Below are positions 44,869 to 63,866 of a DNA stretch of 64,000 bases, piece by piece. Source of the stretch: an uncultured Gammaproteobacteria bacterium (GTDB lineage Bacteria; Patescibacteriota; Microgenomatia; UBA8517); contig CAZWNZ010000001.1 of NCBI GenBank assembly GCA_964635715.1, positions 74,358 through 138,357 on the forward strand. The letters run 5' to 3'. A program made the position numbers and the translations under genes. Each line of letters starts with the position of its first letter. The first letter of the stretch is position 1. Under the pieces are notes generated by a model, which saw nothing but the letters and a program-made list of their open reading frames with translations, was not told the DNA's origin and made no database searches.

Positions 44869-45321
44869 TTATTTTTGTGGAACTTCATCCATCGGGGAAT
44901 TTTTAAGTATATTTGGTTTGAAATTTAGTTCTATTGGGGGAATTACTTCTCCTGTTGAAGACTTTGCTTCGATAGTCATTTTGTATGAAACTTCATATTG
45001 CCACCCCTCCATTGCTCGTACAAAGAGAGACGTGTTGTTGTCATCGGTTTCAATAATTGTGTCTGTTTGGGGATTAGTGTTAATAACGAGAGAACTGATA
45101 TCGATCGGTTTTGAAAAATAGAATTCTATAGAAGAAGTGCTTAAAAGTGAACCTGAAGAGTTATTTTCCGGAACTGATTTTATAAGTTTAAATTCTACAT
45201 ACGGGGTAGGTGTCGGTTTTTGTCTAAATCCGACGCCAGACTTAGAAAGGATCCAAACTATTGACAAGACAGATAGAACAAGAAGAATAAAAACTGGTAC
45301 AATTTTTTTGTTTTTTAGCAT
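44869..45321 (-). CDS. Small exported/anchored beta-rich protein, hypothetical (last gene of the T4SS-like operon)
   Basis: N-terminal TM/signal (IVPVFILLVLSVLSIVWIL), Ig-like-looking remainder. Confidence 0.35.
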   Translation of the reverse strand: MLKNKKIVPVFILLVLSVLSIVWILSKSGVGFRQKPTPTPYVEFKLIKSVPENNSSGSLLSTSSIEFYFSKPIDISSLVINTNPQTDTIIETDDNNTSLFVRAMEGWQYEVSYKMTIEAKSSTGEVIPPIELNFKPNILKNSPMDEVPQK

Positions 45322-48025: not shown

Positions 48026-49894
48026 TTATTTGTCAGCGTATGGATTGGTGTTTACCTTCACAACTTCCTGTGGTTTAGTTGTAATTAATCTGTTTTCTTC
48101 TTCCGAAGCAACAATTCTAATTGGGGCATGGTGTGGCCCTGCAAAGAAAATGCCTTCTCCAACATTGGCTGCAAGAAGAAGCCTTTTTTCTCCTTGGGAC
48201 AAATAGAAGACCTCGCCAATCTTATCAATTGCGGCAGGGGATTGCTTTAAGAGAAGCTGCATGGCGCTATTTGTGACAATAGCCTTTCCAATGTCCTGTC
48301 CGAGGAAGTCCTCGACGTCCTGAGTGATTGTAGTGAGTCCTAGATAGTATTTACGGGCCCTTTTAACAACACTCCATAAAAATTGGGCAGTATCGGGATA
48401 TCTCATCATGTGCCAAGCTTCATCTACAATCAAAATTCTTCTCTTGAGATTCTTTTTAACCCTAGTCCAAATATAGTCGAGAATAATAAACATGGCGATT
48501 GGGCGAATGGCGTCCTGCATATCTTTAACAGAAAACACAGTGAAGGGATTGATAATGTTAATGTTAGTTTGTTGATCGAAAATTCCTACAAAGCTTCCTC
48601 TAACAAATTTTTCAAGTCTGGCGGCAAGATCCAGAGCTTCAGGTGATTCCATGCCGATCAGGGTTTTGTAAAGATCTTCCATGAGAGGGGGTTCTTTGCC
48701 TTGGGTCTCGGGATCCATAGTAATTCCTTTGGCCCGATAAGTCATTATTAAGGCACGGTCAAGCAATGCCTCCTGAATTGGGGTGATTGCCCCCATAATC
48801 ACTTTCATTAGGGAATGAAGAGAAAGTATTTTTAGTCCAAGCTGATTTTCACCCTCTTCACGGATTTGGGACAGATCAAAAGGATTAATTTTTGCCTGGG
48901 AATTGTAGGAGAATGATATATATTCACCACCCACCGCTTCGGCTATAGATTTATATTCGCTTTCAGGATCAATAACTATTGTTTCGACCCCTGTCATGAG
49001 CGACCTTAGCGCCTCAAGTTTAACAAAATAGGATTTACCGGCTCCCGATGTTGCAAAAATTGTCATGTTGGCATTTTGCAGGCTAAACCTATCAAAAATA
49101 ATAAAAGATTCGTTTTGAGAATTCATTCCATAGAGAACACCTCTGTCACTTGAAAGTTCGGTTGAGGTTAGGGGAAAAGTTGTGGCAACCGATGTGGTAT
49201 CCATATTTCTGGTGATGTTAAGGCGGTCGATGCCAAACGGGGCAGTTGCCAAAAACCCCTCTGACATATTTAGCATGGCATGTTTGCTGACAATCATAAG
49301 GGATCCAAGTTGAGATTCGACCTGTTTAGTTATTTGATTCAGTTCCTCAACGGAATTTGCAGGGATTGTAATGTAAAAACCAAATTCGTAAAATCTTTCA
49401 ATTCCTTTAACTAATTGTTCCTGCAGCGCCTGAGCATCCTCTAATTTTGCCTGTGTCACCGGATCAACCAGTTTTCCCCGTTCGATATCTGTGGTCATTT
49501 CAGCTTCCATTTCGGCGATTTTTCGCCTTAGATCATCAAGAACGCTCTTTCCGTCGACTGGATAGATATAAAAAGAAATATCCAAAGAGGTATCAATATT
49601 GACTACGGGTTCGAGCCACCCCGGGGCGACAAATCTTGGATATCCACCGACAAAAATTGTCCTGAAATAGACATCGTTGACTTTGATATAGTCAAAATCA
49701 ACCTCAACCGATTGGGGTGAAATTACATCAAGTAGGTTCATTCCCTGATTCATAACCGAATAGGCGGCTGAAACAACCGGAGGCTTAACCTCCGTATTAG
49801 AATCTTGAATCTTGAATCTTGAATCTTGAGACGTGGAGCCTAAATCCTGATCTGCAGGTTTTATATTTGGTGTTTTTGTAATATTGTTTTGCAT
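48026..49894 (-). CDS. VirB4/TrbE/CagE-family T4SS ATPase, C-terminal ~620 aa (middle plus ATPase domains)
   Basis: Walker A IFATSGAGKSYFVKLE, Walker B ILIVDEAWHMM (the hhhhDEAW typical of VirB4), mid-domain KVNDVYFRTIFVGGYPRFVAPGWL. Confidence 0.8.
   Translation of the reverse strand: MQNNITKTPNIKPADQDLGSTSQDSRFKIQDSNTEVKPPVVSAAYSVMNQGMNLLDVISPQSVEVDFDYIKVNDVYFRTIFVGGYPRFVAPGWLEPVVNIDTSLDISFYIYPVDGKSVLDDLRRKIAEMEAEMTTDIERGKLVDPVTQAKLEDAQALQEQLVKGIERFYEFGFYITIPANSVEELNQITKQVESQLGSLMIVSKHAMLNMSEGFLATAPFGIDRLNITRNMDTTSVATTFPLTSTELSSDRGVLYGMNSQNESFIIFDRFSLQNANMTIFATSGAGKSYFVKLEALRSLMTGVETIVIDPESEYKSIAEAVGGEYISFSYNSQAKINPFDLSQIREEGENQLGLKILSLHSLMKVIMGAITPIQEALLDRALIMTYRAKGITMDPETQGKEPPLMEDLYKTLIGMESPEALDLAARLEKFVRGSFVGIFDQQTNINIINPFTVFSVKDMQDAIRPIAMFIILDYIWTRVKKNLKRRILIVDEAWHMMRYPDTAQFLWSVVKRARKYYLGLTTITQDVEDFLGQDIGKAIVTNSAMQLLLKQSPAAIDKIGEVFYLSQGEKRLLLAANVGEGIFFAGPHHAPIRIVASEEENRLITTKPQEVVKVNTNPYADK
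49800..49827. repeat. Four perfect GAATCTT heptamers at the 5' end of the VirB4 ATPase ORF
   Basis: gaatcttgaatcttgaatcttgaatctt; encodes QDSRFKIQDS at codons ~23-32. Confidence 0.7.
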
Positions 49895-49898
49895 ATTT

Positions 49899-49930
49899 TC
49901 TAGATTCTAGCTACTAACTACTAGATTCTT
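49899..49930. repeat. CTAG-rich heptamer array (TCTAGAT TCTAGCT ACTAACT ACTAGAT) in the 19-nt gap separating the two VirB4 ORFs
   Basis: Provides TAG stops on the coding (minus) strand between 49914..50648 and 48026..49894. Confidence 0.6.
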
Positions 49931-50648
49931 GTTTGTCCAATATAACTTCCGGTTCTTTTTTAACAGCCGGCTTCTCGGGATTGTAAATGGAATAGTAAAG
50001 ATTGATAAGCTCAGGTGTGGTAAGTTGTTTGAATTTCAGTCCCAATCTCCCTGCCTGGCGGATCAAGTGGTCGCGTCTTGGATAAAGGGTGATTTTTGCT
50101 TTCTTAATAACGTACGATTTCGGAAATGGCAGGGGTCCTCCTCCTTTGGTAATCGCGGCTACAGATTTGGCAATACCAAGTTCAAGGGGGGATAAATAAA
50201 GGATAACAAAAAATCTTTTACCCAAAACATTTTTCTTTTTAACGGATTCACTGATAAAGTTCCGGTAGTTTTGCATCAAGTTGGAGAGTAGCGGTTGGGT
50301 CATTTTTTTTGCCTGTTCATCGAGAAAATTCAGATAGGATGAAATATCTTTTTTCTGTGTCAGAACTACAATCTGTGTAGAAAAAGTCAGAGAGTTTATC
50401 ATGGCTGCATAGGCTGCAATTACCGCCTCTTGTTCTTTTTCTGAAAGGAGACCAAAGTTTAAAGAAGTAGATTCCATAATGAGTGAGGCGCCGCCATCTT
50501 TATAGATAACAATGTCGTTTGTTATATCCGCAACCGGCACGAAATCCTGTGTTGTGGCCGTAAGCGGTTTGTCGGGAACACTCAGGAAAGGAATCTTAAG
50601 TTTAGAATTTTGAATCTTGAATTTTGAATCTTGAATTTTACTATTCAT
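49914..50648 (-). CDS. VirB4 N-terminal-domain-like protein (separate ORF; apparent split of the VirB4 gene)
   Basis: DITNDIVIYKDGGASLIMESTSLNFGLLSEKEQEAVIAAYAAMINSL resembles the N-terminal region of monoderm-type VirB4 ATPases (tentative, by eye); 244 + 622 aa equals the usual VirB4 length; 5' end carries the heptamer-encoded MNSKIQDSKFKIQNSKLKIP. Confidence 0.5.
   Translation of the reverse strand: MNSKIQDSKFKIQNSKLKIPFLSVPDKPLTATTQDFVPVADITNDIVIYKDGGASLIMESTSLNFGLLSEKEQEAVIAAYAAMINSLTFSTQIVVLTQKKDISSYLNFLDEQAKKMTQPLLSNLMQNYRNFISESVKKKNVLGKRFFVILYLSPLELGIAKSVAAITKGGGPLPFPKSYVIKKAKITLYPRRDHLIRQAGRLGLKFKQLTTPELINLYYSIYNPEKPAVKKEPEVILDKQESSS
50591..50639. repeat. Seven-unit heptamer array (GAATCTT/GAATTTT alternating) at the 5' end of the VirB4-N ORF
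   Basis: gaatcttaagtttagaattttgaatcttgaattttgaatcttgaatttt. Confidence 0.65.
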
Positions 50649-51016: not shown

Positions 51017-52108
51017 TTAATTTAATGGTGTTCCACTAGATTCGAGATTCAAGATACTAGATTCTACTTGTAGTCTTTTTCCTGTAACAAGTATTGGTGG
51101 AATTATCTCTCCCTTAGCCTCAAAATTGACGGGCATAAATTGATAACCGTCCTTTTCGCTGATAATGCTGTATTTCCCGTTTTCGAGAGGTGTGACTGCC
51201 ATAAAATGGCCAAGCTTGTTGCTTCTGAGAGCCCTTATTGGTCTTCCATATTCATCTCGTATTTCGATTATTGCGCTTTCTATTATTCTTCTGGCCTCAT
51301 CGACAACTTGTCCGACAATAACATTTGGACTGGTTGGGGGATTGGGCGGTGTGGCATCGATCGAGAATATCGCCTCTTTTGTAGACACTATTTCCTCACC
51401 GACGACTGTCGGATTGACTTGCTGAGTTTGGAATTGTGCTGTTTGGTCAATGATTTTTGGTTTTTCCTCCACAACAAGATGGGAGGTCTGTGGTGAAACA
51501 ATTTTAACAGGGTTGCTTACCGGAATTTCAAGTTTTTTAGGTTCAGTAGAAGCTACAGGTTGGTTGGTTGGTTGGGCTACTGTCGTAGCCAGTGGTGTTT
51601 TAATACCCGCAAGTATGCCGGCTAGTTTGGAAAAAAAACCTTGTTCAGCAACCTCGAGTTTGGCAAGTGGTCCTTGCGGAGACCTGGAGCTGTCAAGATA
51701 GTTTTTAACAGCCGCATCCTGATTTTGTGTTTGAGAATTTGGGATGTTTGAGGACGGACTTTCGTCCTGAAAAAATTTCCGGATACCTGTTGTTTTTTTC
51801 CAGTGGAAAGTAGTAGGAGAATAAATTGCTTTAAAGAAAGCCAGGATCCACTGTTCCAGTGGGCGTTCCTCAAGAGGAACAAAAGCCATAGCAGCTCCAA
51901 GAATGACAAATATAATTATAAAAGGCCATTTAATAATTCCCGGAAGGGGGGTTGCGTAAAATATCAAACCAACTAATACGCCCCCCGCAAGTTCAAAGAA
52001 TTGCTTAAGAGTCATATCTCCAACCAATTTGAATTGGTAAGAACTTACGTTTTGTGGTATCGGATGTTGTTCCATGCTCTTGAGCAGGGCGAAAGAGCAC
52101 AAAAGCAA
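51017..52108 (-). CDS. VirB3/PrgI-like two-TM membrane protein with a long Q/P/T-rich extension and C-terminal beta domain (tentative)
   Basis: TM hairpin FFELAGGVLVGLIFYATPLPGIIKWPFIIIFVILGAAMAFVPLEERP in the position VirB3 usually occupies upstream of VirB4. Confidence 0.4.
   Translation of the reverse strand: MLLCSFALLKSMEQHPIPQNVSSYQFKLVGDMTLKQFFELAGGVLVGLIFYATPLPGIIKWPFIIIFVILGAAMAFVPLEERPLEQWILAFFKAIYSPTTFHWKKTTGIRKFFQDESPSSNIPNSQTQNQDAAVKNYLDSSRSPQGPLAKLEVAEQGFFSKLAGILAGIKTPLATTVAQPTNQPVASTEPKKLEIPVSNPVKIVSPQTSHLVVEEKPKIIDQTAQFQTQQVNPTVVGEEIVSTKEAIFSIDATPPNPPTSPNVIVGQVVDEARRIIESAIIEIRDEYGRPIRALRSNKLGHFMAVTPLENGKYSIISEKDGYQFMPVNFEAKGEIIPPILVTGKRLQVESSILNLESSGTPLN
51038..51065. repeat. 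Heptamer array (AGATTCG AGATTCA AGATACT AGATTCT), opposite orientation to the array at 50591..50639
   Basis: agattcgagattcaagatactagattct; lies in the 3' end of the upstream CDS. Confidence 0.55.
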
Positions 52109-52193: not shown

Positions 52194-52784
52194 CTAGTTG
52201 GCACTACAACAACAGCAACCCACATCACTATCATGATCGCTGCTACTATAGCTAGAATTGCTGTCATACACTTTTCTAGAAGGATCTATGTATGCCTTGG
52301 CCAACACCTCTTCAAGTTTATTAGCATTTTGCCAGTCTTGTTTTTGTAGACAAACCAATGCCTGTGCGTTAATGGATATGGATTCGTTGTCGGGAGCAAT
52401 TTGAATCTCTATAGATGAATAGTCATAACTACCCGTATGGTTTGAATCAACCTTTCCGTCGGCCCCAATTTTAAAAGATGTTCCCCAAACAAGTGCGATT
52501 CTACCTGTAGATGCAACATATTTTAGTTGATGGCTTTTAACATTACCATCAAGCATCTCTTTATCTATTCTTTCAAGGCAGTGAAGGATATTACTACTTC
52601 CGACAATTTCATTATTTTTAGAAATTACAAATTGAAGTCTTCTTTCCTCAGCTTCCTTTTCAAGCCTCTTCTTTTCTTCGTTAGCCAACCTTTCTTTTTC
52701 GAGGACCTCCTGACGGGCTTTTTCCTGTCTGGCAGCCTCCTCAGCTCTTTCCTGTTGAATACGCTTTATTATTTCAATTGGCAT
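52194..52784 (-). CDS. Hypothetical protein with coiled-coil N-terminus and Ser/Cys-rich C-terminal tail; candidate YcaO/SagB substrate
   Basis: Ends ...YDSNSSYSSSDHDSDVGCCCCSAN; lies immediately downstream of the SagB-type dehydrogenase in the same operon. Confidence 0.4.
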   Translation of the reverse strand: MPIEIIKRIQQERAEEAARQEKARQEVLEKERLANEEKKRLEKEAEERRLQFVISKNNEIVGSSNILHCLERIDKEMLDGNVKSHQLKYVASTGRIALVWGTSFKIGADGKVDSNHTGSYDYSSIEIQIAPDNESISINAQALVCLQKQDWQNANKLEEVLAKAYIDPSRKVYDSNSSYSSSDHDSDVGCCCCSAN

Positions 52785-52818
52785 ATTTGGCTGTATTATA
52801 TGTCTACAACAATAAAAG

Positions 52819-53451
52819 TCAAGCTCCTATAGCCAAATAGTATATTGGATATTCCTCACGGGGATTTATGTCGAGGAGTTTAATTAGCGGCTTTTCGTTT
52901 AACATTCCAATTGCACAACATCCGATTCCAAGACTCGTTGACAGTAAATATATATTTTGCGCAACATGCCCAGCTTCAATATAAGGAAAATACATCCCTC
53001 TTTCTTTATATTTATCTGTGGTTCTATGAAATACAGAAGTAAGAATTATCAAAACAGAAGCTTTTTTGAACCATAACTGTTTTGTCATCCAGATCTGATC
53101 AATATCCTTGGTTGCCATTTTTCTGTGTAGAATTTCTAACCCATGACTAATTGGATTGTAGTGATATAAACCTTGCCTAATATTTCCGCCTTTCATGACA
53201 AGTATATAAGCCTCGAGCGGATATTTTGCGCCAGCAGATGGATAAACACGAAAGGGGTTTTTTTCTTCATAAGGATTTTGTCTAATTGCCGCTAGACTGT
53301 GGTATAGAATATCAGACAAAGTCTTTTTGCCCACCGTTTTTCCTGTAAAGTTCCTAGATGATGTTCTACTTTTTATGATTTTTCTTAATTCTCCGGCCGT
53401 ATTTGTTCGGGGGAGTGGTATTTTTTCTAACCTGGAATAAGTTTTGTGCAT
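52819..53451 (-). CDS. SagB-type (nitroreductase-fold, FMN) dehydrogenase of azoline/azole RiPP pathways
   Basis: RTSSRNF...YPSAGAKYPLEAYILV...GLYHYNP...KYKERGMYFPYIEAGHVAQNIYLLSTSLGIGCCAIG matches the TIGR03605 SagB-type pattern. Confidence 0.7.
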   Translation of the reverse strand: MHKTYSRLEKIPLPRTNTAGELRKIIKSRTSSRNFTGKTVGKKTLSDILYHSLAAIRQNPYEEKNPFRVYPSAGAKYPLEAYILVMKGGNIRQGLYHYNPISHGLEILHRKMATKDIDQIWMTKQLWFKKASVLIILTSVFHRTTDKYKERGMYFPYIEAGHVAQNIYLLSTSLGIGCCAIGMLNEKPLIKLLDINPREEYPIYYLAIGA

Positions 53452-53453
53452 AC

Positions 53454-54812
53454 TTAAAAAGGATGAATTTTTGATAGCTCATTAACATTCATATTTAGAT
53501 TTACATCAATATTCCTATTTTTTGGAACTTCAGTGAGTCTTTTTATGCCAAAATATGGATATCTTTCGTCGTGCCATAGAGGTACCATTTCTGGGACAAG
53601 AACCTTGACAACTTTCAAACACACTTTTTCAATTTCAGGAGTCGTCATGTCGATATAATATGCGGTGCACCCAATGTTTTTAAGCTTTGAAAGAGTGTAC
53701 TTAAGATATTCTTCATCTGTCTTGAACATTGTTGTTTTAGTCAACGAAACTTGCTTGGAGCTCTTAATAAAATTTTCGACCTGCCCTATCATATGCGGAG
53801 CTGACCACTCACGATGTTTCTGCCAATTAAACCATTCAAACGATCCTTTTGGGGGCGGAGGGTTGTTCACATAAAAATATTTTTTTCTATTTGTTACATA
53901 TCTTCTGAGCGCCTCAATCGCCGATATCTTTAACACATTAGCTGTGTCTAGGCCGGCCCCCAGGCCACAACACACCGCAGGGCCCACGCCCGTTCTGTCT
54001 ACAAGAAGGCAAACAACTGAAAATATTCCAGTGTCTAGCGTGGTATCAAAAAAATAAATCTCAAAATTATATCTGGCGAATTTTTCTACAAGTTCTTTTA
54101 ATTCTTTATTTGACTTGTCTAGCGAAATCAAGCGTTTTGGTATTTCTGGAAGAAACGAAATTACATACCCATCCCTCTCAATAATTTCACAAAGCCCCCT
54201 ATAAACAGCAAAATCAATGTTTGGACCGCAGGCGGCCCCCGTACTTATAGGCATTCGTATAACTGGTTCATTGTGTTGTTTGTGGGAATAATTTGCGTAT
54301 GCTAAAGAGGCAGGTATTAGTTTTTTCTCATGACTTATTAGATTATGCCCCATCAGCCAATTAATCTGCGAGTTTCTGGATATATTAAACTTTTTGTACT
54401 TTTTTGTGGACAGCTGTTTGGGTGTAAAAGGAACAAAAACTGTTGGATCAATGGCATTATTTTTTAACTGTATATATGATCCATGTACAAACTTTTCCGG
54501 AGTTTCGTTCAAGATACAATAATGTTCTATAGCTTCGGTTATTGAACGTTCGATGGATGTTCTCTCGTTGTCGCTTCCACCATAACCATAGGCAGTGTTA
54601 ACTTTGTTTCCTTTTGAATATCTTTCACAGGAATATATAAAAAACTGGGGAATGTCTGGCCATGTTTTACTTTGAGTTAGTTGTCCAAGTATTTTATGGG
54701 ATTGCAGGTCATTGTGGATTTTTTTAAAACGAGAAGACAATGGTAATTTTGAAAACGGAAATGTCCTTACTGCAGGGTCATGGGGCAGAGCGATTCGAGC
54801 ACCGTTTTTCAC
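53454..54812 (-). CDS. YcaO-domain protein (ATP-dependent cyclodehydratase family)
   Basis: GYGGSDNERTSIERSITEAIEHY (G-GxG-S-ERS-EA-ER motif) and PISTGAACGPNIDFAVYRGLCEIIERDG (PxSxGxAxG...E..ERD) are YcaO ATP-binding signatures. Confidence 0.8.
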   Translation of the reverse strand: MKNGARIALPHDPAVRTFPFSKLPLSSRFKKIHNDLQSHKILGQLTQSKTWPDIPQFFIYSCERYSKGNKVNTAYGYGGSDNERTSIERSITEAIEHYCILNETPEKFVHGSYIQLKNNAIDPTVFVPFTPKQLSTKKYKKFNISRNSQINWLMGHNLISHEKKLIPASLAYANYSHKQHNEPVIRMPISTGAACGPNIDFAVYRGLCEIIERDGYVISFLPEIPKRLISLDKSNKELKELVEKFARYNFEIYFFDTTLDTGIFSVVCLLVDRTGVGPAVCCGLGAGLDTANVLKISAIEALRRYVTNRKKYFYVNNPPPPKGSFEWFNWQKHREWSAPHMIGQVENFIKSSKQVSLTKTTMFKTDEEYLKYTLSKLKNIGCTAYYIDMTTPEIEKVCLKVVKVLVPEMVPLWHDERYPYFGIKRLTEVPKNRNIDVNLNMNVNELSKIHPF

Positions 54813-54886
54813 AAGGATATTTTAGCACGGGTTAGCAATTTTTAACTGTATTTCAATTCACCCTGATCATGTTATATAATTAGCCT

Positions 54887-57622
54887 ATGCCAGAAACATT
54901 AGGAAGACCGGGCATTCCTTCACAATTGGAATCAAAGGGATTCTATCATACACCACACAAAGACGATGGTTCTGGCTTGCCCGAAATTGATCCAGCAGAC
55001 GCAGCTTTGAATGATGCAATAAATCGACAGATTGGAAGAGAATTTGAGGTCAATGCAGAGATGGCAACAAATCCGGAAACTTCAGCTGATTTTTTTGAGG
55101 GTCTTAGGGGAGTTGAAGAATTACAAGAGGATGGGAACGTTCCGAAGGAAGCTCAAGATCGTTGGACTCCGTCAAGACTTCATTCGGCAATGTATTACAA
55201 TGCCAAGGCACTTGGTGTTTCTATAAATGAGCTTCTTAGGAAAGGAAGAATTGAGCCAACAAAGATTACTGAGCTCATAGATGGAAAGGCGGTAGTCACT
55301 GATGGATACAAACCAACTAAACCCAAGTTTGCATCCTTCGCAATATCATATGAGCCATTTAAGGCTGGAAATGTCAAATTGGGTAATGGCTTTAATCGTG
55401 ACGAAATTGATTATAAATATGATTTTGGAATACCAACAGAAAATTCAAATAAGAGGCTTGAGATGGCTCTTGCAGTCAAGAAGGGTATAACTGAATATCA
55501 AGCACGCTTGATCCTGGGTGAACATATTTCCGTAAGGACCAGTCTGAGATTTCGCGACTCTTTAGAAGACTTGGTGGGTATTATGCATAGTGGTAGTGTT
55601 ACTTATTTTAAGGGTGATCATTTGAAGGGATTGTTTAATTTGCCTAGCGTGCGGGAATTAGAAGGCGGTATAAAACTGTCCGATACAAATAAAGAACAAG
55701 TTAGGACGAGAGTAGAAGAAGAAAACGCAAAACAACTTTCAAAAGAAAACAGACCACTCACAGATGAACAAAGAGAAATTGTCACGGCATCAATTAGAGA
55801 CCCTCTAATATCTAAAGAATTTGAAAACAGACACGAATTTGGTGATCAAGTTGAAGAGGCAATTTTTCTTAATATGATAATGTTAAATTCCTCAGGAAAA
55901 ACCAGAATGCAGGAGTTTCTCAAAAGACCAGGAGTAATTAAATTAATGTCGAGGTTGGCAGATAAGGATGTCAGTTTACAAAATTTATTAAACAAGAAAG
56001 ATTTAGAATTGATGACAAATGAGCAGGTGATGCTGAGCAAGGCTAAACAGTGGCAACTTGCACACATTGGGGATGTCGATAATTGGATAGATGACAAAGA
56101 TAGATATTTGGAAAACACCACAGTCAGAATGAAAAATGGAGTTGAGGTAAAAGAGGGTGGAACAAAGGTAAGAGTGAAAGCAACTTGGAGGGAAGAATCA
56201 GAAATAGGTCTCCGTAAAGAGTTAACTAAATGGGCAAATATTTCCGCCTGGGGCGGAAACCCTTCTGAGTTTAGTGCAGATAAAGAAATTCGATTTATTG
56301 AAGGTGCTATTGGAGATGTTGTTGGAAGCAAGGAAGCTGCTTGGCTTGCGGCAACATTTTTGAGATCAATCGGTGCATATGCCTCCGAGGGATATGCGGT
56401 TCTTCCACCAAAGGATGGGGGAAGCGTGAAAGGTAGATTTTTATTACCATTAGGAGAAGGTCGATATATAAGCGGGGACGATACAGGAAAATTTTATGCA
56501 AATCTGTTTAACTTAAAAGAAGGGCTAAAAGGTCGCGCATCTGGCCTGAAAGATATGATAGGTAGAGTTCCCGACATGGCAATGAACCTTTTTGATTGGG
56601 CTGGAGTTGAGGTGGGTAATGCAGACGGCACCGACCCCGAATATCCTCTTAATTGGGATGGAACAATGCAAAAAAGATCTGTATGGGATGCCTGGCTTGG
56701 GACAGCGGAGCAGCCATTGAGAGATATATTAACTGGTGGAGATGTGGTGGAAGTTGCTAAGATAGATGGGAATATTCTTAACAAACTTAGTGATGAAGAT
56801 AAGGAAACGGTTACAGCTAACAAAATGGGATTTGTTGAAGTCAAAAGAAAAACAAATAACAGTGGTAAGGAAGAAGTGGTTTATAAAGTTCTAGATTTAG
56901 ATACAAATGACAGAATCTCTTCGGGGAGAGTTTTAATAAAAGGAATTAAAAACAAACACGGGCTGCCGCTTATCGATAAAAACAATCAAGAAAAAATGTT
57001 TTTGTGGGTTGCTGAGGAAAAAGGTAAAAGATTAGGAGATCTGAATTTCAAAACACTTGAAAGAGAATTCCATGGAACTTTCACAATTATGCAGTGGCTT
57101 ATGGGGAACGGGGAGGGACCAACAGGCGTTTTTGTTGATGCTCTAAAGACAAATTTCAGGCCTGAGGATTTTGAAATGAATGAGCTCAAAAAGAAAATTA
57201 AGTATATCGGAATTGTCATGAATCCGGTAGTTCTAACAAAAGGTTCTCAACACCTATATAAAGATGCGGGCGGGGCTGCTGGAGTAGTCCAAAATGTATT
57301 TTTTGATAATTTAATGAATGCAAGAAAACGCAGCAATTGGTTTGCTCAGAATATTTTAGGCAACTTTGTAAAACTATTTAATCCTGATGGTGGAGTAACA
57401 ACCACCTCCTCAGCAATGCTTGTTGATGCGTATATTACTGAAGCAAAAAAGAAATCTGGCATGGAATCAGTATCCGACCTGGTCAAACATTATATAGACG
57501 GAAATGGGGATATGAGAACGATAGCTGGAGAAAAAACTAACACTGTTGTTAAGCAAGTTATCGAAAGTGCGAGTCTTACAGATAAAAATATTGGCATGAT
57601 TAGGGGTAAAAATACCTATTAA
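54887..57622 (+). CDS. Large (911 aa) hydrophilic orphan protein, no signal peptide or TM; GC-richer than its surroundings
   Basis: Long uninterrupted ORF, divergent from the YcaO operon; TATAAT-like box at ~54868; no recognisable motifs by eye. Confidence 0.5.
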   Translation: MPETLGRPGIPSQLESKGFYHTPHKDDGSGLPEIDPADAALNDAINRQIGREFEVNAEMATNPETSADFFEGLRGVEELQEDGNVPKEAQDRWTPSRLHSAMYYNAKALGVSINELLRKGRIEPTKITELIDGKAVVTDGYKPTKPKFASFAISYEPFKAGNVKLGNGFNRDEIDYKYDFGIPTENSNKRLEMALAVKKGITEYQARLILGEHISVRTSLRFRDSLEDLVGIMHSGSVTYFKGDHLKGLFNLPSVRELEGGIKLSDTNKEQVRTRVEEENAKQLSKENRPLTDEQREIVTASIRDPLISKEFENRHEFGDQVEEAIFLNMIMLNSSGKTRMQEFLKRPGVIKLMSRLADKDVSLQNLLNKKDLELMTNEQVMLSKAKQWQLAHIGDVDNWIDDKDRYLENTTVRMKNGVEVKEGGTKVRVKATWREESEIGLRKELTKWANISAWGGNPSEFSADKEIRFIEGAIGDVVGSKEAAWLAATFLRSIGAYASEGYAVLPPKDGGSVKGRFLLPLGEGRYISGDDTGKFYANLFNLKEGLKGRASGLKDMIGRVPDMAMNLFDWAGVEVGNADGTDPEYPLNWDGTMQKRSVWDAWLGTAEQPLRDILTGGDVVEVAKIDGNILNKLSDEDKETVTANKMGFVEVKRKTNNSGKEEVVYKVLDLDTNDRISSGRVLIKGIKNKHGLPLIDKNNQEKMFLWVAEEKGKRLGDLNFKTLEREFHGTFTIMQWLMGNGEGPTGVFVDALKTNFRPEDFEMNELKKKIKYIGIVMNPVVLTKGSQHLYKDAGGAAGVVQNVFFDNLMNARKRSNWFAQNILGNFVKLFNPDGGVTTTSSAMLVDAYITEAKKKSGMESVSDLVKHYIDGNGDMRTIAGEKTNTVVKQVIESASLTDKNIGMIRGKNTY

Positions 57623-57636
57623 TTGAAGATTAAATT

Positions 57637-59511
57637 TTAAGTACCACCCTCAACTTTGGGTTTTTTGTTTTTCAAAGCTTCCTTTACCCTGGTTGTCCAG
57701 TTGGCAAGTTTGTCTTCCAGAGCCACCTTTCTGGCAGTTTCTAAATATGGAGCCCCTGTTTGTCCCCAGGCCCACTTGGCTGGTCCAAATGCCTCCCCAA
57801 TTGCACTACCATAAGCAAACGGCTTACCTGTAATGAACCCTTGGACAATTTCAGTGGCCTTGGGAATTAAAGTAAAAACAACGAAACTTACTGCCATAAA
57901 AATCAATCCAACAACCAAGGAATTATTACTCAGACCCAAAAGAGGAAGTTGTACGGAGCTGGATAACGCTTGGTTGGTTGTTCCCAAAATGGCATCTGCA
58001 ATACTTGATCCAGTAATTAGTCTCAAAAGTCCTGCCCCAAAACCGTTTGGGAAAGCATTTTCGATCCCTAAGAGAAGAAAAATGTATGCCAACAAAAATA
58101 AAACTCCAGTAATTACAAAAACAGCAAGAGACGAAACAAAGCTTTTTAGCCACGAAGCAAAACCTAAATTAGAAATAATTATACCAGCTGTTATTTGAAG
58201 CGGAGCGGCTATTGTTAATAGAAATATTTGGGCACAAGCTTTGGTGAGTTTCCATACAATTTTAATAGAGGTGACAAGTGTCATAATAGTAATTATTATT
58301 AGCAAAATAATGTAAACAATCACGCCGACTGAGAGTATGTCTCCAAATCCTTTAAGAACGTCTTTAATGTAAATAGCTAGGCCAAATGAAAAATATTTTG
58401 AAAATTGAGTCAAATAATTGGCGACTAAGGCAAACACACCTTTTCCGTCTGGACCGTTAGTTAGCCAGCTGAATACATAAGCAGCGCTAGTATCTCCATA
58501 TTCCGATCCTGGAACAGCTTTGACGATTGGGGCAGCAAAAATACTAATCAATCCTATTACGACATACATGAGATCGATTAGAAATCCAGCTATTGCATAC
58601 GAAAAAGTTACCAGAACTAAGGCAATCAATATTTTAGGGATGGCTGATTGAATGGTGATTACAACTTGTGGTGATATTTTAACTCTGAACATTACCATGA
58701 ACGACAAAACAATGGCGGCAATCACAAAAAGAATGTAAGCCATGTTTCGCACAGCGACCCACATATTTTGGACTACTTCTAAAAACTGAAAACCGACACC
58801 CATATCGTTTGTTTGCGCTTTTACACTTTTAACAGGTTGAAGTTTTTGAAAAACACCCTTTGTATAAGAAATTCCTGAAAAAGGGCGATCGTCGGCAAAA
58901 ACTGCTGCTAATAAAGGAGTATTGGCATGATCCGAACCTGCAATTATATTGTTTTTAATTTTCAAAAAAGATTCAGAATTGGAAACGTCCTCCAGTATAC
59001 ACGTATCTTCAGTTCCACCATTTAATAAACATTGGATAGCCGACACAGAACCCTCACCTGATGTTGAGTTTATAATAAAGCTGTAAATACTATAAAATAT
59101 CCACTGAACCTGTGCTGCAGTATATCTTTCTCCGAAAATCTCATTGGGGTTGGAGTTGTCATATACTTTACTTGACCATTCCTGAAAAGATTGGTTGTAC
59201 CAAGTTCCGGATGAAGCCGTTGTTGATGATGTTGTTGTAGAGTCACCACTGACACACGCTACATCTGTCGCGCTTTGACAAGATTCTTTATCAGTTATGG
59301 CAGTGCAATAATCGGAGTCGACCTCATAACCATCATTACAATCGGCATATGATTCTGCTTCCGCCCTACATGAAGTTAAGTTCCACTTACATTCAAAAGT
59401 GTTGGTTGCCGCTTGTATTTTGGAAACGGGTGCGGCAATGAAATAAAACAAGCCAAAGATAAAAAAAGATGCGAGCAGTTTTTTCATTTGATTTATCCTT
59501 AATCTTATCAA
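57637..59511 (-). CDS. VirB6/TrbL-like polytopic T4SS membrane protein with Cys-containing extracellular N-domain
   Basis: Signal peptide (MKKLLASFFIFGLFYFIAAPVSKIQA from 59487), 6 or more TM helices, hydrophilic C-terminus; located between the pilin array and the VirB3/VirB4 genes. Confidence 0.45.
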   Translation of the reverse strand: MIRLRINQMKKLLASFFIFGLFYFIAAPVSKIQAATNTFECKWNLTSCRAEAESYADCNDGYEVDSDYCTAITDKESCQSATDVACVSGDSTTTSSTTASSGTWYNQSFQEWSSKVYDNSNPNEIFGERYTAAQVQWIFYSIYSFIINSTSGEGSVSAIQCLLNGGTEDTCILEDVSNSESFLKIKNNIIAGSDHANTPLLAAVFADDRPFSGISYTKGVFQKLQPVKSVKAQTNDMGVGFQFLEVVQNMWVAVRNMAYILFVIAAIVLSFMVMFRVKISPQVVITIQSAIPKILIALVLVTFSYAIAGFLIDLMYVVIGLISIFAAPIVKAVPGSEYGDTSAAYVFSWLTNGPDGKGVFALVANYLTQFSKYFSFGLAIYIKDVLKGFGDILSVGVIVYIILLIIITIMTLVTSIKIVWKLTKACAQIFLLTIAAPLQITAGIIISNLGFASWLKSFVSSLAVFVITGVLFLLAYIFLLLGIENAFPNGFGAGLLRLITGSSIADAILGTTNQALSSSVQLPLLGLSNNSLVVGLIFMAVSFVVFTLIPKATEIVQGFITGKPFAYGSAIGEAFGPAKWAWGQTGAPYLETARKVALEDKLANWTTRVKEALKNKKPKVEGGT

Positions 59512-59537: not shown

Positions 59538-61949
59538 TTAATAACAGTCAGCGCTAAAGGGATACCCAGTAAAGTTGCAGCTTGTCATTGTGTTCCAATG
59601 GATATCCATAAGTTCCATATATTGTTCTGCTTTAGGTGGTAACTCTTTCTTGTCTATATTACAGTATCCGTAATAGTAAATAGAAAAGAACATTTCGGTG
59701 TCGCGCCCCTTGCCGAAACATGAAGCATACTGAGGAGCGGTTTTATAATATTCCATAAGTTCGAAAAACTCATTAATTTGTGCAGTAAAACCTCTGTACT
59801 TGGAGCTGTTTATCCCAAAGTCCTGATTGGAAATTTCATAATTACTTGCACCGCTCTCATTTACCCATAGGAGTAGTGTAAATGCAGGGTTTACGTTAGC
59901 TGCAATAGATTTTCTGACAACATCGTTATAGCATTCCAGAACATGATCACCCTCGCGTCCTTCCCAAGCGATTGCAAACTCATGCAAGTCTTCCTTTGAA
60001 ATTAATTTTGGTGCTAAAGAAGATACATCGGCAGCCGTTTGGTCGCAATCGATCCCTGTATTTGTTATATCTTCGATGATGTCATTTTCTGCAAAAGCAA
60101 TTTGTTCCCCATACCCCTTTGGTCTGAGAGCTGTTTGGATTCCCTTTAGGAAGTACTCCGAAACTCCTCCGACGTGGGGAATTTTAAGGTCGGTATTAGA
60201 CTCACTCATATCCGTGCCGGAGTATGTGATGTTGGAAGAACCTGCTATGTCAATTATTTTCCCGACGCCTCCCTCAGTGTTTGTTTTTGGAAAAATTCTC
60301 TTAAAAACTGACATGGATCCTGCCACAAGACGCGACCAGACATCATCCACAAGGGGAATGTTGGACTGAGTGGAAAGATTTATATAAACCTTTTTACTGC
60401 ATTTTTGCCTGACAATTTGAGGAATACACTCCTTGTCTATAAGCGAACCACAACGTTCGCCGACATAATGACCGTTATAGCACATGCAATCAAGAGGCTC
60501 GGTATCGCAAGGTTTGTCTATCAGAGAACCACAGCGTTCGCCGACATAATTTCCGTTAATGCACATACAGTCGAGAGGGTCATCTTCCGTGGTAGGTTCG
60601 TTAAATATGCAGGTAAAGCCGGCGGTATAAGAAAGGTCTCCTGTTAGTTGATTGGCAAAGAGGTCGTCTCCTGCATTTGAACGTACTTCCACGGTGCTGC
60701 ACGATGTATCTGAAATATTCGTAGGACTACTTACTTTCTCCTCTCCTTGCGGTATATAAGTATCCTGTAAAAGCGAACCTAACTCATCGGCTTCGACCAT
60801 GTGAGGCAGAAATAGAGTGGAAGGCAATTGGTTGGAAAAAGTGATGTTTTTAACCGTAACCCCGGTAGTATTTAGATTGGTTGATGAGGAAACGTTATCT
60901 ATTTTAATATTTCCCTCCACATCTTCTGTTGATGAGAGGGAAATATATGGAAAAAGTTCCGCATATTTGCTTTTAACAAGAGGATTTTTTACACAAATGA
61001 GTTGATTGATAACAGGTATTAGGGCACATGTGTCTCCCTGCCATTCTCTATATGCTTTAAGATATTCTTTTTCATTTTCAAATTGTTCATTCCAGGGGAG
61101 AGGAGGGGTTCTTTTGTTCCAAGCTACACCAACATATCGATTGATTTCTTCGGATGTAGCATTCGGTAAAAGATTTAGGATGGCTCTCTTTAAAATATTG
61201 GAAATACCTCTGGTGATACCAAGACCGCCACTTTCCCATTCTGTAAGGCGATATGTATTGGAAATGACACTATTTTCATCATGACACCCAACAGGATCTC
61301 CACTTAATGAAGTACAGACGACAACTTTATCGTGCTGCGTCTCCTTAGCTGATTCTATCATTTCAATTTGCTGAGCTTGTTGGATAGCTTGAGGCAGAAG
61401 TTTTTTTAGTGGCCCGGAATAATTTACAAAATTCTGATCAGTGTCATTGGCACTGCCATATTCAGTGCGGTTTGTGACACCGTTTAAGTACCAGCTGACA
61501 TATTCATTCATTTTTTGAGCGTCATCAAAACTCTCCTCGGAACTTTGCGAATTGATAACATCCTCAGTATTGCCCATAATAGGCAACTCAGCTCCGCTTA
61601 GGTTGATAGTCACGCTTTTGTTTACGTCTATATTGTATGTGCAGTAAATTTTGCCGTTTTTGGTCGTGCAGTCACCGGGAGTTCCGGGATAGTAAATATC
61701 AATGGTATTGGTAAGCGTTAAATCAGTTCCACAGTATGTTGCATAGTCTGAGACGCTGCTGGAACATTGTGTGTTTGCTTGATAGGGTCTAAGAGAGTGA
61801 AACTCTTCATCGTCGGCCAGTGTGCTATCGGTTGTTTCATCGCACTTTATATTTGTATTTGACGGAATCTGGGAGTGAACAGATGTTGGATCAAACAGGG
61901 ATAGAAAAAGAAACAAGGGAATTAGAAAGAGAACATGCAGTTTATTCAT
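59538..61949 (-). CDS. Large secreted Cys-rich protein with tandem EGF-like ~24-aa repeat; candidate surface adhesin or T4SS-associated surface factor
   Basis: Signal peptide MNKLHVLFLIPLFLFLSLFDPTSVHS; PLDCMCINGNYVGERCGSLIDKPC / PLDCMCYNGHYVGERCGSLIDKEC tandem. Confidence 0.5.
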   Translation of the reverse strand: MNKLHVLFLIPLFLFLSLFDPTSVHSQIPSNTNIKCDETTDSTLADDEEFHSLRPYQANTQCSSSVSDYATYCGTDLTLTNTIDIYYPGTPGDCTTKNGKIYCTYNIDVNKSVTINLSGAELPIMGNTEDVINSQSSEESFDDAQKMNEYVSWYLNGVTNRTEYGSANDTDQNFVNYSGPLKKLLPQAIQQAQQIEMIESAKETQHDKVVVCTSLSGDPVGCHDENSVISNTYRLTEWESGGLGITRGISNILKRAILNLLPNATSEEINRYVGVAWNKRTPPLPWNEQFENEKEYLKAYREWQGDTCALIPVINQLICVKNPLVKSKYAELFPYISLSSTEDVEGNIKIDNVSSSTNLNTTGVTVKNITFSNQLPSTLFLPHMVEADELGSLLQDTYIPQGEEKVSSPTNISDTSCSTVEVRSNAGDDLFANQLTGDLSYTAGFTCIFNEPTTEDDPLDCMCINGNYVGERCGSLIDKPCDTEPLDCMCYNGHYVGERCGSLIDKECIPQIVRQKCSKKVYINLSTQSNIPLVDDVWSRLVAGSMSVFKRIFPKTNTEGGVGKIIDIAGSSNITYSGTDMSESNTDLKIPHVGGVSEYFLKGIQTALRPKGYGEQIAFAENDIIEDITNTGIDCDQTAADVSSLAPKLISKEDLHEFAIAWEGREGDHVLECYNDVVRKSIAANVNPAFTLLLWVNESGASNYEISNQDFGINSSKYRGFTAQINEFFELMEYYKTAPQYASCFGKGRDTEMFFSIYYYGYCNIDKKELPPKAEQYMELMDIHWNTMTSCNFTGYPFSADCY
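60405..60560. repeat. Tandem ~72-nt duplication inside the secreted-protein CDS (encodes the Cys-rich repeat)
   Basis: gaaccacaacgttcgccgacataatgaccgtt... vs gaaccacagcgttcgccgacataatttccgtt... Confidence 0.65.
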
Positions 61950-61973
61950 GACAATTCATTATAACAGTAGAAG

Positions 61974-62270
61974 TTAATTGGGGAGTACGACGTTAAAATC
62001 GGTAACATTTGCTCCGGTCAGATTCTTTATAAGTAAAAGAATTAAATAAGAGACAAGGATAATAACAAGCCCTGTAATCGCAGAAGTTAATGTTTTTTTG
62101 GCTCCCTCCGCAGCTTTCGGGTCTCCTCCTGATGTAATAAATTTAAAGCCACTAATTATTAGAAGAAAGAACAGAACTATTCCTGCCAAACCTAACGCAT
62201 AGCCAATTATGTTTTTAAAAACATCTCCCAGGTCGGCGATTGTAGCAATAGAATCACTAGCCATAAGCAC
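61974..62270 (-). CDS. VirB2/TrbC-like T4SS pilin, paralog 1
   Basis: Two hydrophobic helices flanking ITSGGDPKAAEGAKKTLTSAITGL. Confidence 0.55.
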   Translation of the reverse strand: MLMASDSIATIADLGDVFKNIIGYALGLAGIVLFFLLIISGFKFITSGGDPKAAEGAKKTLTSAITGLVIILVSYLILLLIKNLTGANVTDFNVVLPN

Positions 62271-62307
62271 ATTCTAAACTAAAAAAAGTTAGCGGGCAAT
62301 AAGACGG

Positions 62308-62643
62308 TTAAATTGAGGGGATAGCCAAAGAGAATATGTCAACACCGAAGAAGGTATTGATAAGGGCTACAATTGCCCATGCGGCGAAGACTATTACAAG
62401 GCCGACAAGAGCTGCTGTAATTTGGTTTCTGGCAGTTTCAGTTTTGACTTTATCTCCACCTGACGCAATCCATTTGATACCACCAATAACCAAAATGAAA
62501 AAGAAAATAATTGCAGCAACTATGACAATCAACCTGATACCACCCGAAATAATTTCAGGAATGGTCAAATCTCCTAATTTCTCAAAATTGGAATCACTTG
62601 GTTGAAGTTCAATTGTATCGGCTGCTAAAAGTAATTTTTGCAT
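62308..62643 (-). CDS. VirB2/TrbC-like T4SS pilin, paralog 2
   Basis: IKWIASGGDKVKTETARNQITAALVGL; the ORF runs to 62763, but the start at 62643 (MQKLLLAADT) avoids overlap with paralog 3. Confidence 0.5.
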   Translation of the reverse strand: MQKLLLAADTIELQPSDSNFEKLGDLTIPEIISGGIRLIVIVAAIIFFFILVIGGIKWIASGGDKVKTETARNQITAALVGLVIVFAAWAIVALINTFFGVDIFSLAIPSI

Positions 62644-62656
62644 TTGTATACAAGTA

Positions 62657-62983
62657 TTATCGAATAAATAGTTTACTGATGTCAAGAGCCAGTAGGTCAA
62701 TATTAAAGAAATGCTCCAACAATTCAAGTACTGCAAACGATGCGAAAAGAATAATAAGTCCAACCAAAGCGCTGGTTATTTTCCCGCGTGCGGCTTCGAC
62801 AGCTTGCTTGTCTCCACCGGAAGTGATCCATTTGATTGCTCCCATAACTAATGTAAAAAAGAAAATCACTACACCGATGATTAAGGCTAGGGTTATAAGT
62901 TTGGGGACAAAGTTTTGGAAAAAAGTTACACCATCAGAACCCAGATCTGATGTTATTGGATTAATTATTGTACTGCCTCCCAT
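62657..62983 (-). CDS. VirB2/TrbC-like T4SS pilin, paralog 3
   Basis: IKWITSGGDKQAVEAARGKITSALVGL. Confidence 0.55.
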   Translation of the reverse strand: MGGSTIINPITSDLGSDGVTFFQNFVPKLITLALIIGVVIFFFTLVMGAIKWITSGGDKQAVEAARGKITSALVGLIILFASFAVLELLEHFFNIDLLALDISKLFIR

Positions 62984-62985
62984 AT

Positions 62986-63354
62986 TTATTTGTTTAAATT
63001 AGTAATATTGCCAAATAGGCTGGTAAGATTCAAGATATCCGCTATACCCAGGATCTTTCCGATCAAACTTACTATCAAAACAGCCAAAAGTACGACAATC
63101 AAACCAATGATACCTGTTGTTATTCTTTTCCTCGACCCTTCCAAAGCCTGTTTGTCTCCGCCCGCACCGATCATGCTGATGGCTCCTGTTATAAATACAA
63201 ACAAAAACCAGATAATTGCAACAACAGTCATTACCCCGATTGCCATAGAAATAATAGAAGAAAGCTTACTAACACCATCACCAACATTTTCTCCCAAAGT
63301 TCCGATTCCCACAAAACCGTCTTTTGGTGCAATTGATAAAGCTAGTGTTTTCAT
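62986..63354 (-). CDS. VirB2/TrbC-like T4SS pilin, paralog 4
   Basis: ISMIGAGGDKQALEGSRKRITTGIIGL. Confidence 0.55.
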   Translation of the reverse strand: MKTLALSIAPKDGFVGIGTLGENVGDGVSKLSSIISMAIGVMTVVAIIWFLFVFITGAISMIGAGGDKQALEGSRKRITTGIIGLIVVLLAVLIVSLIGKILGIADILNLTSLFGNITNLNK

Positions 63355-63866
63355 AGTTCCGGTATTGTCGGGTTAAGTATATATGTTGCGTCGCCAAAAA
63401 TTAATCGTCCAAAAATAGCTGCCAAGACTAACGCTCCTGCTGCAACCAATAGACCAACTGCCGTTTGCCAGATTTTTGCCCAAGCTCCGGCGACTTTTTT
63501 GGGATCATCACCTGCAGAGAGGAAAGAGTATCCTGCAAGAATAAAATTAATAAGTGCATAGACTCCGGCGCCGGCTATTAAGATCCAAATAGCATACTGG
63601 ATTACTGTCCCAATAGCCGTACCCGGATTATCCCCATATTTGGATAATGCCGCTGGGGTGTCAATTTTTCCAAATGGGTTGTTGCTGGTGCCGCCTGAGC
63701 CAGTGTTTGATATACAACAATGTGCACTACAATAATATCCGGAGCCACACTCAGAAGAAGTGCTGCATTCGTATGGATAACATGCCGCCCGAATACTATT
63801 AGTCTGCAGTAATAGGAAAAAGCCAAAACTTAAAAGTATATAAAGGAATTTGGTTGTTATTTTCAT
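63351..63866 (-). CDS. VirB2/TrbC-like pilin, paralog 5, with signal peptide and extra Cys-rich N-terminal module
   Basis: AACYPYECSTSSECGSGYYCSAHCCIS followed by the pilin core FLSAGDDPKKVAGAWAKIWQTAVGL. Confidence 0.5.
   Translation of the reverse strand: MKITTKFLYILLSFGFFLLLQTNSIRAACYPYECSTSSECGSGYYCSAHCCISNTGSGGTSNNPFGKIDTPAALSKYGDNPGTAIGTVIQYAIWILIAGAGVYALINFILAGYSFLSAGDDPKKVAGAWAKIWQTAVGLLVAAGALVLAAIFGRLIFGDATYILNPTIPEL

Follow-up and report, generated by a model that had tools for sequence, protein, structure and literature searches.

A fixed position with apparently replaceable content in a chromosomal type IV secretion locus of Microgenomatia

Results

A constant position in the secretion locus

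The 64,000-nucleotide stretch analysed here (hereafter the window; positions 74,358 to 138,357 of contig CAZWNZ010000001.1, assembly GCA_964635715.1) belongs to a chromosome of the Microgenomatia, ultra-small parasites of the Patescibacteria (candidate phyla radiation, CPR). Near the origin, downstream of dnaA and dnaN, it carries a type IV secretion system (T4SS) locus in which two minus-strand operons, one on the ATPase side and one on the pilus side, flank a single plus-strand gene encoding a protein of 911 amino acids (aa) (Table 1). Comparison with related loci suggests that the position of this gene is fixed in Microgenomatia T4SS loci and that its content is replaceable, the 911-aa protein apparently being one allele. 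We call this position, bounded by the PrgI gene on one side and a VirB6-like gene on the other, the slot, and its occupant the slot gene. A preliminary description of the window, made from the letters alone, had singled out the gene as one long open reading frame (ORF), and our ORF call agrees, with ATG as the start codon.

Loci for comparison were obtained in two ways: three through relatives of VirB4, and 80 from metagenomes with a VirB4 58–93% identical to that of the window. A contig scan with narrow back-translated patterns gave three loci of the window protein's family. This type of VirB4 is very abundant, as at least 7999 clusters at 90% identity passed E ≤ 1e-20 (8000 scored). Genes in the fetched loci were called with a greedy ORF picker that over-extended some starts, and the labels "VirB6-like" and "surface protein" in these loci rest on BLAST to the window proteins and on topology, not on profiles. 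The metagenomic loci carry no assigned taxonomy, and other classes may be represented among those in which VirB4 identity is about 63% or lower.

In all of the metagenomic loci in which both flanks were recognised (36/36), the VirB6-like gene and PrgI enclose a large ORF on the opposite strand. The same arrangement is seen in five further loci, namely the window, L001/L002, L003/L004, L005 (a complete Ca. Woesebacteria chromosome) and L008, the last four of which encode homologues of the window protein at this same T4SS position. The slot ORFs encode 513–1478 aa and abut the 3' end of the VirB6-like gene in 34 of the 36 loci; a small ORF intervenes in the other two. The slot proteins are all hydrophilic (grand average of hydropathy, GRAVY, −0.3 to −0.8) and poor in cysteine, and none has an N-terminal segment resembling a signal peptide on inspection. 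Large opposite-strand ORFs in low-identity loci without an adjacent VirB6-like gene, such as those of L082 and L084 (the latter two with a Clp-like ATPase motif), were rejected as slot genes and excluded from the count of 36.

Slot genes are hypervariable and exchanged by recombination

Next, we compared the slot protein with the machinery that surrounds it. In the related loci, VirB4 is 78–91%, the TraC-like protein 67–87%, PrgI 47–75% and DnaA 62–85% identical to the counterpart in the window, against 53, 34, 37 and 24% for the slot protein in those same loci. Single-linkage clustering of the 46 candidate slot proteins by BLAST gave at least 21 clusters, which are unrelated to each other in the sense that no similarity was detected at the level of sequence. 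Only four of the 46 were linked to the family of the window protein by jackhmmer: those of L011, L015 and L016, which BLAST also finds (36–39% identity), and that of L024, found only by hidden Markov model (HMM). Loci L010 and L013 resemble the window closely in VirB4 (92%), PrgI (75%) and the TraC-like protein (82–87%), and L010 also in DnaA (86%), and BLAST gave no link between their slot proteins and that of the window. Aligned to the family profile with hhalign, the slot protein of L010 reached a probability of 3% and that of L012, where VirB4 is 84% identical, 1.8%.

For the 465 pairs formed by 31 distinct loci, bit-score ratios had medians of 0.69 for VirB4, 0.52 for the TraC-like protein, 0.36 for PrgI, 0.19 for the VirB6-like protein and 0.00 for the slot protein. 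In the same 31 loci, similarity to VirB4 was followed closely by PrgI (rho 0.83) and the VirB6-like protein (rho 0.74), and hardly at all by the slot protein (rho 0.13). As slot similarity is uncoupled from that of VirB4, the slot protein seems to change by replacement rather than by clock-like drift.

Two pairs of loci illustrate how this may happen. Loci L010 and L013, with VirB4 proteins 94% identical, have in common the promoter and residues 1–70 of the slot protein (71% identical), but the remaining bodies of about 830 residues give no BLAST match and reach 27% identity in a forced global alignment. The shared N-terminal part is a leader, MPDGMSPEN..SSIDxMRxLG..LP..QAAxxFPQPE..PDIRMQL, that is found on 16 of 96 proteins with differing bodies. 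Its carriers include P0004, P0013–P0016, P0019, P0028 and P0066, and some of them are members of the window protein's family. The leader possibly serves as a module for docking or secretion. In the second pair, a tract of about 3 kb (L027 5200–8500, L031 4800–8100) is 91–98% identical in 300-nt windows, mostly 96–98%, and covers the slot gene, an ORF of 124 aa and the 5' end of the PrgI gene. Outside the tract, the VirB6-like genes are 42–64% and PrgI/TraC-like/VirB4 58–92% identical, and synonymous divergence (dS) is 0.13 for the slot gene against 0.96 for VirB4. Within allele families, slot proteins are 57–70% identical where DnaA and DnaN are 62–73% identical. Taken together, these comparisons suggest that cassette replacement by recombination is the mode of change, on top of ordinary divergence.

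The slot protein of the window is a compact orphan

The 911-aa protein is identical to a database protein, P0001, encoded on a 482-kb contig. It is hydrophilic (GRAVY −0.52), with an isoelectric point of 6.0 and no cysteine. Hydropathy analysis gave no transmembrane (TM) segment and no signal peptide, as the highest Kyte–Doolittle window of 19 residues scored 0.96 and the N-terminus is hydrophilic. The preliminary description had called the protein hydrophilic and free of a signal peptide, TM segments or recognisable catalytic motifs, which these data and the searches in Pfam, PDB, NCBIfam, PHROGs and PADLOC confirm. Pfam gave no significant match for the window protein or for ten distant members of its family, and at E ≤ 1 no Pfam family was matched by more than one of the 49 members. 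NCBIfam gave no match to the window protein, PHROGs (best E 0.046) and PADLOC (best E 0.017) gave nothing significant, and a sequence search and a profile search of the PDB returned chance matches only. No P-loop or other nucleoside triphosphatase (NTPase) motif was recognised in the window protein by Pfam or inspection; a Walker-like reading of SGDDTGKF was rejected because the spacing is wrong and the lysine is not followed by serine or threonine.

When 1.84 billion representative proteins were searched exhaustively with an HMMER profile, only 58 clusters matched, mostly of 650–920 aa with fragments as the remainder, and a repeat search of a word-indexed database with a profile of 49 sequences found no further members. 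Judged by occupancy and conservation per 20 residues, the family has a core of about 690 aa. Lineage-specific insertions are present in the window protein and its closest relatives at residues ~260–318, 361–380, 405–435 and 620–705. The invariant residues include R190, R443, D532, K535, E545 and K772, and the motifs that contain invariant residues include LPLGEGRYISGDDTGKF and KEGLKGRxSGLKDMIG. Neither the 33-sequence nor the 49-sequence family alignment contains an invariant histidine or tyrosine.

A first AlphaFold2 (AF2) model from an 11-sequence alignment was mediocre, with a predicted local distance difference test score (pLDDT) of 67.7. A second model, from the 33-sequence alignment, was confident and compact (pLDDT 85.1; predicted template modelling score, pTM, 0.86). 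The predicted fold is mixed alpha/beta and multi-domain, with helical domains and beta-hairpin modules. Foldseek gave no match to this model in the PDB or BFVD, the best hit (E 0.013, TM-score ≤ 0.1, AcrB) being meaningless, so that the modelled fold is unmatched in either database. A tape-measure-like role was rejected, as the model is compact.

The protein has no Pfam, NCBIfam, PDB-profile or Foldseek match to a type IV coupling protein (VirD4/TcpA) and no TM anchor; it matches no conjugative relaxase (MOB) in Pfam, NCBIfam or the PDB, and no histidine or tyrosine is invariant in its family. VirB6 proteins are recognised by at least five TM segments, which the 911-aa protein does not have, the TM core in this locus being encoded by the separate neighbouring gene at 57637–59511. 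Pfam recognised no toxin domain in the 911-aa protein, and its neighbours in the window are YcaO and the VirB6-like gene, with no evident immunity gene. Small ORFs adjoin the slot gene in some other loci.

Composition and promoter

The preliminary description had estimated by eye a guanine-plus-cytosine (GC) content of 42–43% and a different codon choice for this gene, and had proposed a horizontal origin on these grounds. None of this withstood measurement. The GC content of the ORF is 39.2%, compared with 37.8% for the whole window, 37.8 ± 1.9% for sliding windows of the same length (in which the ORF stands at the 75th percentile) and 38.1 ± 2.5% for the 44 ORFs of the window. GC at third codon positions is below average (31.2%, mean 33.2 ± 2.9% for the 44 ORFs), and the synonymous-codon distance of the ORF from the other ORFs, 0.568, is among the lowest of the 44. 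The slight excess of GC lies in codon position 1 (50%) and thus reflects amino-acid content. Composition is within the variance of the window, and GC, third-position GC and codon usage are all typical. The slot ORF is a lone plus-strand gene amid minus-strand neighbours, with a GC skew of +0.21 to +0.34 and 35% A. As the switch of strand makes the plus strand purine-rich here, it probably accounts for the difference seen by eye.

The divergent spacer of 74 nt between the slot gene and YcaO is present as described previously and contains a −10 box for each gene. That of the slot gene, TATAAT, lies at 54875–54880 and ends 6 nt 5' of the ATG. That of YcaO is an extended −10 element on the minus strand, TGcTAAAAT, with its hexamer at 54819–54824, and also ends 6 nt 5' of the start codon, here GTG. 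A Shine–Dalgarno motif is absent before both genes, which, with a −10 box 6 nt before the start, suggests leaderless mRNAs. The slot gene thus probably has its own promoter and a leaderless transcript. The arrangement TAnAAT-N6-ATG also precedes the homologues in L001, L003, L005, L007 and L008 and most slot genes. It was rejected as a feature specific to slot genes, as the arrangement is genome-wide. A TAnAAT box stands 6–10 nt before many starts in the window (e.g., 92, 11199, 12958, 16846, 45321, 54812, 54887 and 61949), and Shine–Dalgarno motifs are nearly absent across the window genes, which implies that leaderless mRNAs are widespread.

Neighbouring genes and cargo beside the slot gene

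Three minus-strand genes separate PrgI from the slot gene in the window and lie outside the conserved unit (Table 1). Besides YcaO and a SagB-type dehydrogenase, they include a Cys-tailed ORF of 196 aa that is plausibly the long-leader precursor of a ribosomally synthesised and post-translationally modified peptide (RiPP) of the thiazole/oxazole-modified microcin or linear azole-containing peptide (TOMM/LAP) type. No E1-like or SagC partner was seen beside the three genes. The homologues of the slot gene in L001/L002, L003/L004, L005 and L008 occupy the same position without YcaO, and neither YcaO nor SagB was found beside the slot gene in the 80 metagenomic loci mapped or in L001, L003, L005 and L008. 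As the slot gene is present elsewhere without YcaO, the three genes are cargo inserted beside a resident gene. On this comparison, the pairing with YcaO is incidental, and it is the YcaO trio and not the slot gene that is the newcomer.

The gap between the slot gene and PrgI is a hotspot for cargo, holding 0–8 unrelated ORFs (L003 9337–9795; L008 8520–9788; L011 7576–7959; L073). Examples are a glutamate dehydrogenase in L008 and a protein of the 23S_rRNA_IVP family in L011. An AbiEii/DUF6922 pair precedes a distant family member on L007, a contig of 4.2 kb without an identified T4SS gene.

The VirB6-like protein has a signal peptide, a cysteine-containing N-terminal domain and ~6–8 TM segments in a TM scan. 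It has no Pfam match and is labelled by its topology and position. Its gene is convergent with the slot gene, and 14 nt separate the two stop codons. L001 and L003 have the pilus-side operon in the same gene order. Residues ~455–510 of the 803-aa Cys-rich protein of this operon (59538–61949, minus strand) contain a tandem duplication, DPLDCMC(I/Y)NG(N/H)YVGERCGSLIDK(P/E)C. The VirB4 of L001 (4020–7580) has 1186 aa and contains an intein with a LAGLIDADG homing endonuclease; that of L002 (5761–7581) has 606 aa and is free of an intein, and the slot proteins of the two loci are identical (P0003). A 3.4-kb contig, L006 (DATJGY010000015.1), carries the C-terminus of a slot-family protein and a VirB6-like gene and is binned in a metagenome-assembled genome labelled Alphaproteobacteria, most likely as a Microgenomatia contaminant.

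Table 1. Features of the T4SS locus in the window (coordinates are positions in the window; a dot in the strand column means no strand).
Feature	Coordinates	Strand	Basis and remarks
dnaN and dnaA	42131–44862		abut the ATPase-side operon
Small Big_5 protein	44869–45321	−	profile match
895-aa protein with three TM-like segments	45336–48023	−	C-terminal peptidase M23 match
VirB4, CD1110 family	48026–49894	−	profile match, 375 bits; 78–91% identical in related loci
TraC-like/TrsD	49914–50648	−	profile match
PrgI (VirB3-like); first gene of the ATPase-side operon, left slot boundary	51017–52108	−	PF12666; 47–75% identical in related loci
Cargo trio between PrgI and the slot gene	52194–54812	−	Pfam and NCBIfam; outside the conserved unit
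196-aa Glu/Lys-rich ORF ending ...VGCCCCSAN (...SSYSSSDHDSDVGCCCCSAN)	52194–52784	−	
SagB-type dehydrogenase	52819–53451	−	TIGR03605
YcaO, SagD type	53454–54812	−	TIGR03604, 213.7 bits, just below the cutoff of 219.25
Divergent promoter spacer, 74 nt	54813–54886	.	sequence; two back-to-back −10 boxes
Slot gene, putative allele of the opposite-strand T4SS slot gene	54887–57622	+	ORF call, family alignments A1–A3, AF2 model
VirB6-like polytopic membrane protein; right slot boundary	57637–59511	−	topology and position
Pilus-side operon: 803-aa Cys-rich secreted protein, then VirB2-like pilin array	59538–63866	−	

Discussion

What the slot protein may do

A constant slot with unrelated occupants, in loci whose VirB4 proteins are 58–93% identical, is the signature expected of a determinant of host interaction. 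The reading that we tentatively prefer, short of regarding it as probable, is that the slot protein is a host-directed substrate or specificity factor that is linked to the T4SS and independent of Sec. It builds on the obligatory position, on a protein free of a Sec signal, on diversity of the replacement type that does not follow the machine, and on the modular leader. The gene would be one allele of a fixed-position, hypervariable gene of the origin-proximal chromosomal T4SS locus of Microgenomatia, and its product compact and soluble, with several domains and with neither a Sec signal nor detected relatives beyond the slot. This product would leave the cell through the T4SS, independently of Sec, and act on or in the host bacterium, and alleles would be swapped by recombination as the host or its defences change. 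The anatomy and synteny of the locus, the hypervariability and recombination of the slot gene and the orphan status of its product are directly observed; secretion, a host target and any biochemical activity are what we infer. A more specific version, which we consider doubtful, is that the slot encodes polymorphic large effectors of novel fold that are exchanged by recombination and injected through the T4SS pilus into the host bacterium, where they would set host range or enable the extraction of resources. The preliminary description had already suggested an effector or substrate of the T4SS, and this idea is now the leading hypothesis on other grounds than those given there: its link to the T4SS stands, circumstantially, on position, the missing Sec signal, hypervariability and recombination, and the secretion signal and toxin domain that could have accompanied it were not found.

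Several observations weigh against a host-directed substrate. Neither the window protein nor the 49 family members match a translocation signal or domain in Pfam, and no BID, XVIPCD or other known T4SS signal was found in the 911-aa protein; to our knowledge, no translocation signal has been defined for the T4SS of monoderms or CPR bacteria. At the C-terminus, a basic tail ([VT]G[RK][VI]xG[KR][KN]xx-COOH) is kept solely in the closer half of the family, and at the N-terminus the window protein lacks the shared leader. Within an allele family the rate of change is moderate, as the slot proteins of L083 and L088 are 70% identical where DnaA is 71.5% and DnaN 62%, and those of L011 and L015 are 57% identical where DnaN is 64%. 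The longer slot proteins (1073–1478 aa) of L063, L066, L076, L083, L088 and L092, loci with VirB4 at 58–63%, have at their C-terminus a tail-anchor-like hydrophobic segment and, after it, a short charged tail, which suggests residence in the membrane rather than export. A cytoplasmic enzyme or a subunit of the machine could just as well have such a compact fold and such invariant charged residues. Cysteine is also absent from VirB4, the TraC-like protein and DnaN, so its absence from the slot protein does not discriminate, and we no longer take it to hint that the protein is exported unfolded.

The main alternative is that the slot protein stays in the cytoplasm as an accessory or specificity subunit of the T4SS, substituting for the coupling protein as a receptor, gate or handler at the channel of VirB4 and the VirB6-like protein, for example by receiving or processing imported host macromolecules. 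We consider this possible but rather unlikely. Its obligatory position, with one gene per locus, the compact and confident model with invariant Arg, Lys, Asp and Glu residues, and the hydrophobic C-terminal anchor of some distant slot proteins would all fit such a subunit, as would the lack of a coupling protein or relaxase encoded nearby (window gene map; PMC12102498). Saccharimonadia, which have no slot gene, encode VirB6-like proteins of ~1000 aa with large soluble helical domains, suggesting that soluble cytoplasmic mass is needed at the channel, and a cultured Microgenomatia strain is reported to take up host RNA. However, sets of VirB4, TraC-like and PrgI proteins that are 94, 90 and 81% identical work with slot proteins that are unrelated in sequence, and a pair of slot proteins that are 95% identical is found with VirB6-like proteins only 48% identical, although stable subunit contacts usually co-evolve. 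The weak correlation with the machine phylogeny (rho 0.13) and the lack of a P-loop or NTPase motif and of a TM segment in the window protein also argue against a subunit.

It is improbable that the slot gene is simply cargo of a recombination hotspot, such as a defence, anti-defence or niche gene with no mechanistic link to secretion. The extreme diversity of slot genes, the mosaic recombination tracts, the unrelated genes in the gap to PrgI (the YcaO trio, glutamate dehydrogenase, 23S_rRNA_IVP and 0–8 small ORFs) and the AbiEii/DUF6922 pair on L007 are what such cargo would look like. Yet a large soluble opposite-strand gene is constant at the 3' end of the VirB6-like gene and constrained in size, PADLOC and PHROG searches gave no significant match, and, in the contexts examined, all family members on contigs long enough to show their neighbours lie in a T4SS locus. 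The last alternative, a GC-richer foreign gene tied to the YcaO RiPP pathway through the common promoter region, could draw on the short divergent spacer and a GC content slightly above the window mean, but composition and codon usage are typical and YcaO/SagB is absent from all of the at least 80 related loci inspected. We regard this alternative as refuted, for the foreign origin as well as for the tie to YcaO.

The slot protein is a concrete candidate for what the Patescibacteria T4SS moves. If the slot encodes injected effectors, the 911-aa protein would be their first structurally modelled member. Even a cytoplasmic subunit would be a new T4SS component with a predicted fold unmatched in the PDB. 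Surveys of CPR T4SSs that are based on profiles miss a constant component because it has no conserved sequence. A co-culture of Microgenomatia with a host exists (bioRxiv 10.64898/2026.06.21.733656).

Comparison with known systems

The locus in the window is of the same type as the Patescibacteria T4SS loci in the available parts of two earlier reports (Quinonero-Coronel et al. 2025, PMC12102498; Wang et al. 2023, PMC10633639). The common parts are a VirB4 of the Patescibacteria clade, TrsD/TraC-like, PrgI and VirB6-like proteins and a VirB2-like pilin array, adjoining dnaA/dnaN. In those parts of the reports, this T4SS is described as having no relaxase and usually no nearby coupling protein (PMC12102498), as essential for epibiotic growth, with protein export or import of host macromolecules proposed (PMC12102498; PMC10633639), and as having no known substrate in Patescibacteria (PMC12102498, PMC10633639). 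No description of a slot gene was found in the same parts of PMC12102498 and PMC10633639, and genes without profile matches are drawn grey in the synteny figure. In the model locus of Saccharimonadia, SEML1_0006–0019, no soluble protein is encoded on the opposite strand between PrgI and the VirB6-like genes; the genes after PrgI lie on its own strand and encode VirB6-like proteins of ~1000 aa that contain large soluble domains.

These extended VirB6 proteins with their hydrophilic domains, such as SEML1_0011 and SEML1_0013 with large soluble helical domains, and the coupling proteins VirD4/TcpA resemble the slot protein in placing a large cytoplasmic mass with the channel genes; Microgenomatia loci themselves lack a nearby coupling protein. 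Unlike coupling proteins, the slot protein has no Walker A or B motif, TM anchor or homology to them, and it appears to evolve by replacement.

A second likeness is to T4SS effectors encoded within the locus, such as CagA of the Helicobacter cag island and the antibacterial X-Tfe proteins of the Xanthomonas/Stenotrophomonas T4SS. These are also large and soluble, lack a Sec signal, are encoded in or beside the T4SS, and vary strongly between strains against a conserved machine; X-Tfes, in addition, join a common recognition module to variable bodies. The slot protein differs from them in that it shows no similarity of sequence or fold, carries no XVIPCD or BID and has no evident immunity gene beside it. 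The Microgenomatia system is, moreover, a monoderm T4SS resembling the mating pair formation (MPF) class FATA, without a nearby coupling protein, and its slot protein is a predicted substrate only.

Polymorphic toxins (LXG proteins of type VII secretion systems, Rhs/CdiA) provide the third comparison. As in these toxins, a conserved N-terminal leader stands on unrelated bodies in a subset of the proteins compared here (L010 against L013; 16 of 96 proteins), and cassettes are replaced at a fixed locus by recombination. The window protein differs in carrying no leader, and neither a toxin domain nor an immunity partner was recognised. In polymorphic toxins it is a short C-terminal tip that is exchanged, whereas in the slot the whole protein of ~700–900 aa appears to be replaced.

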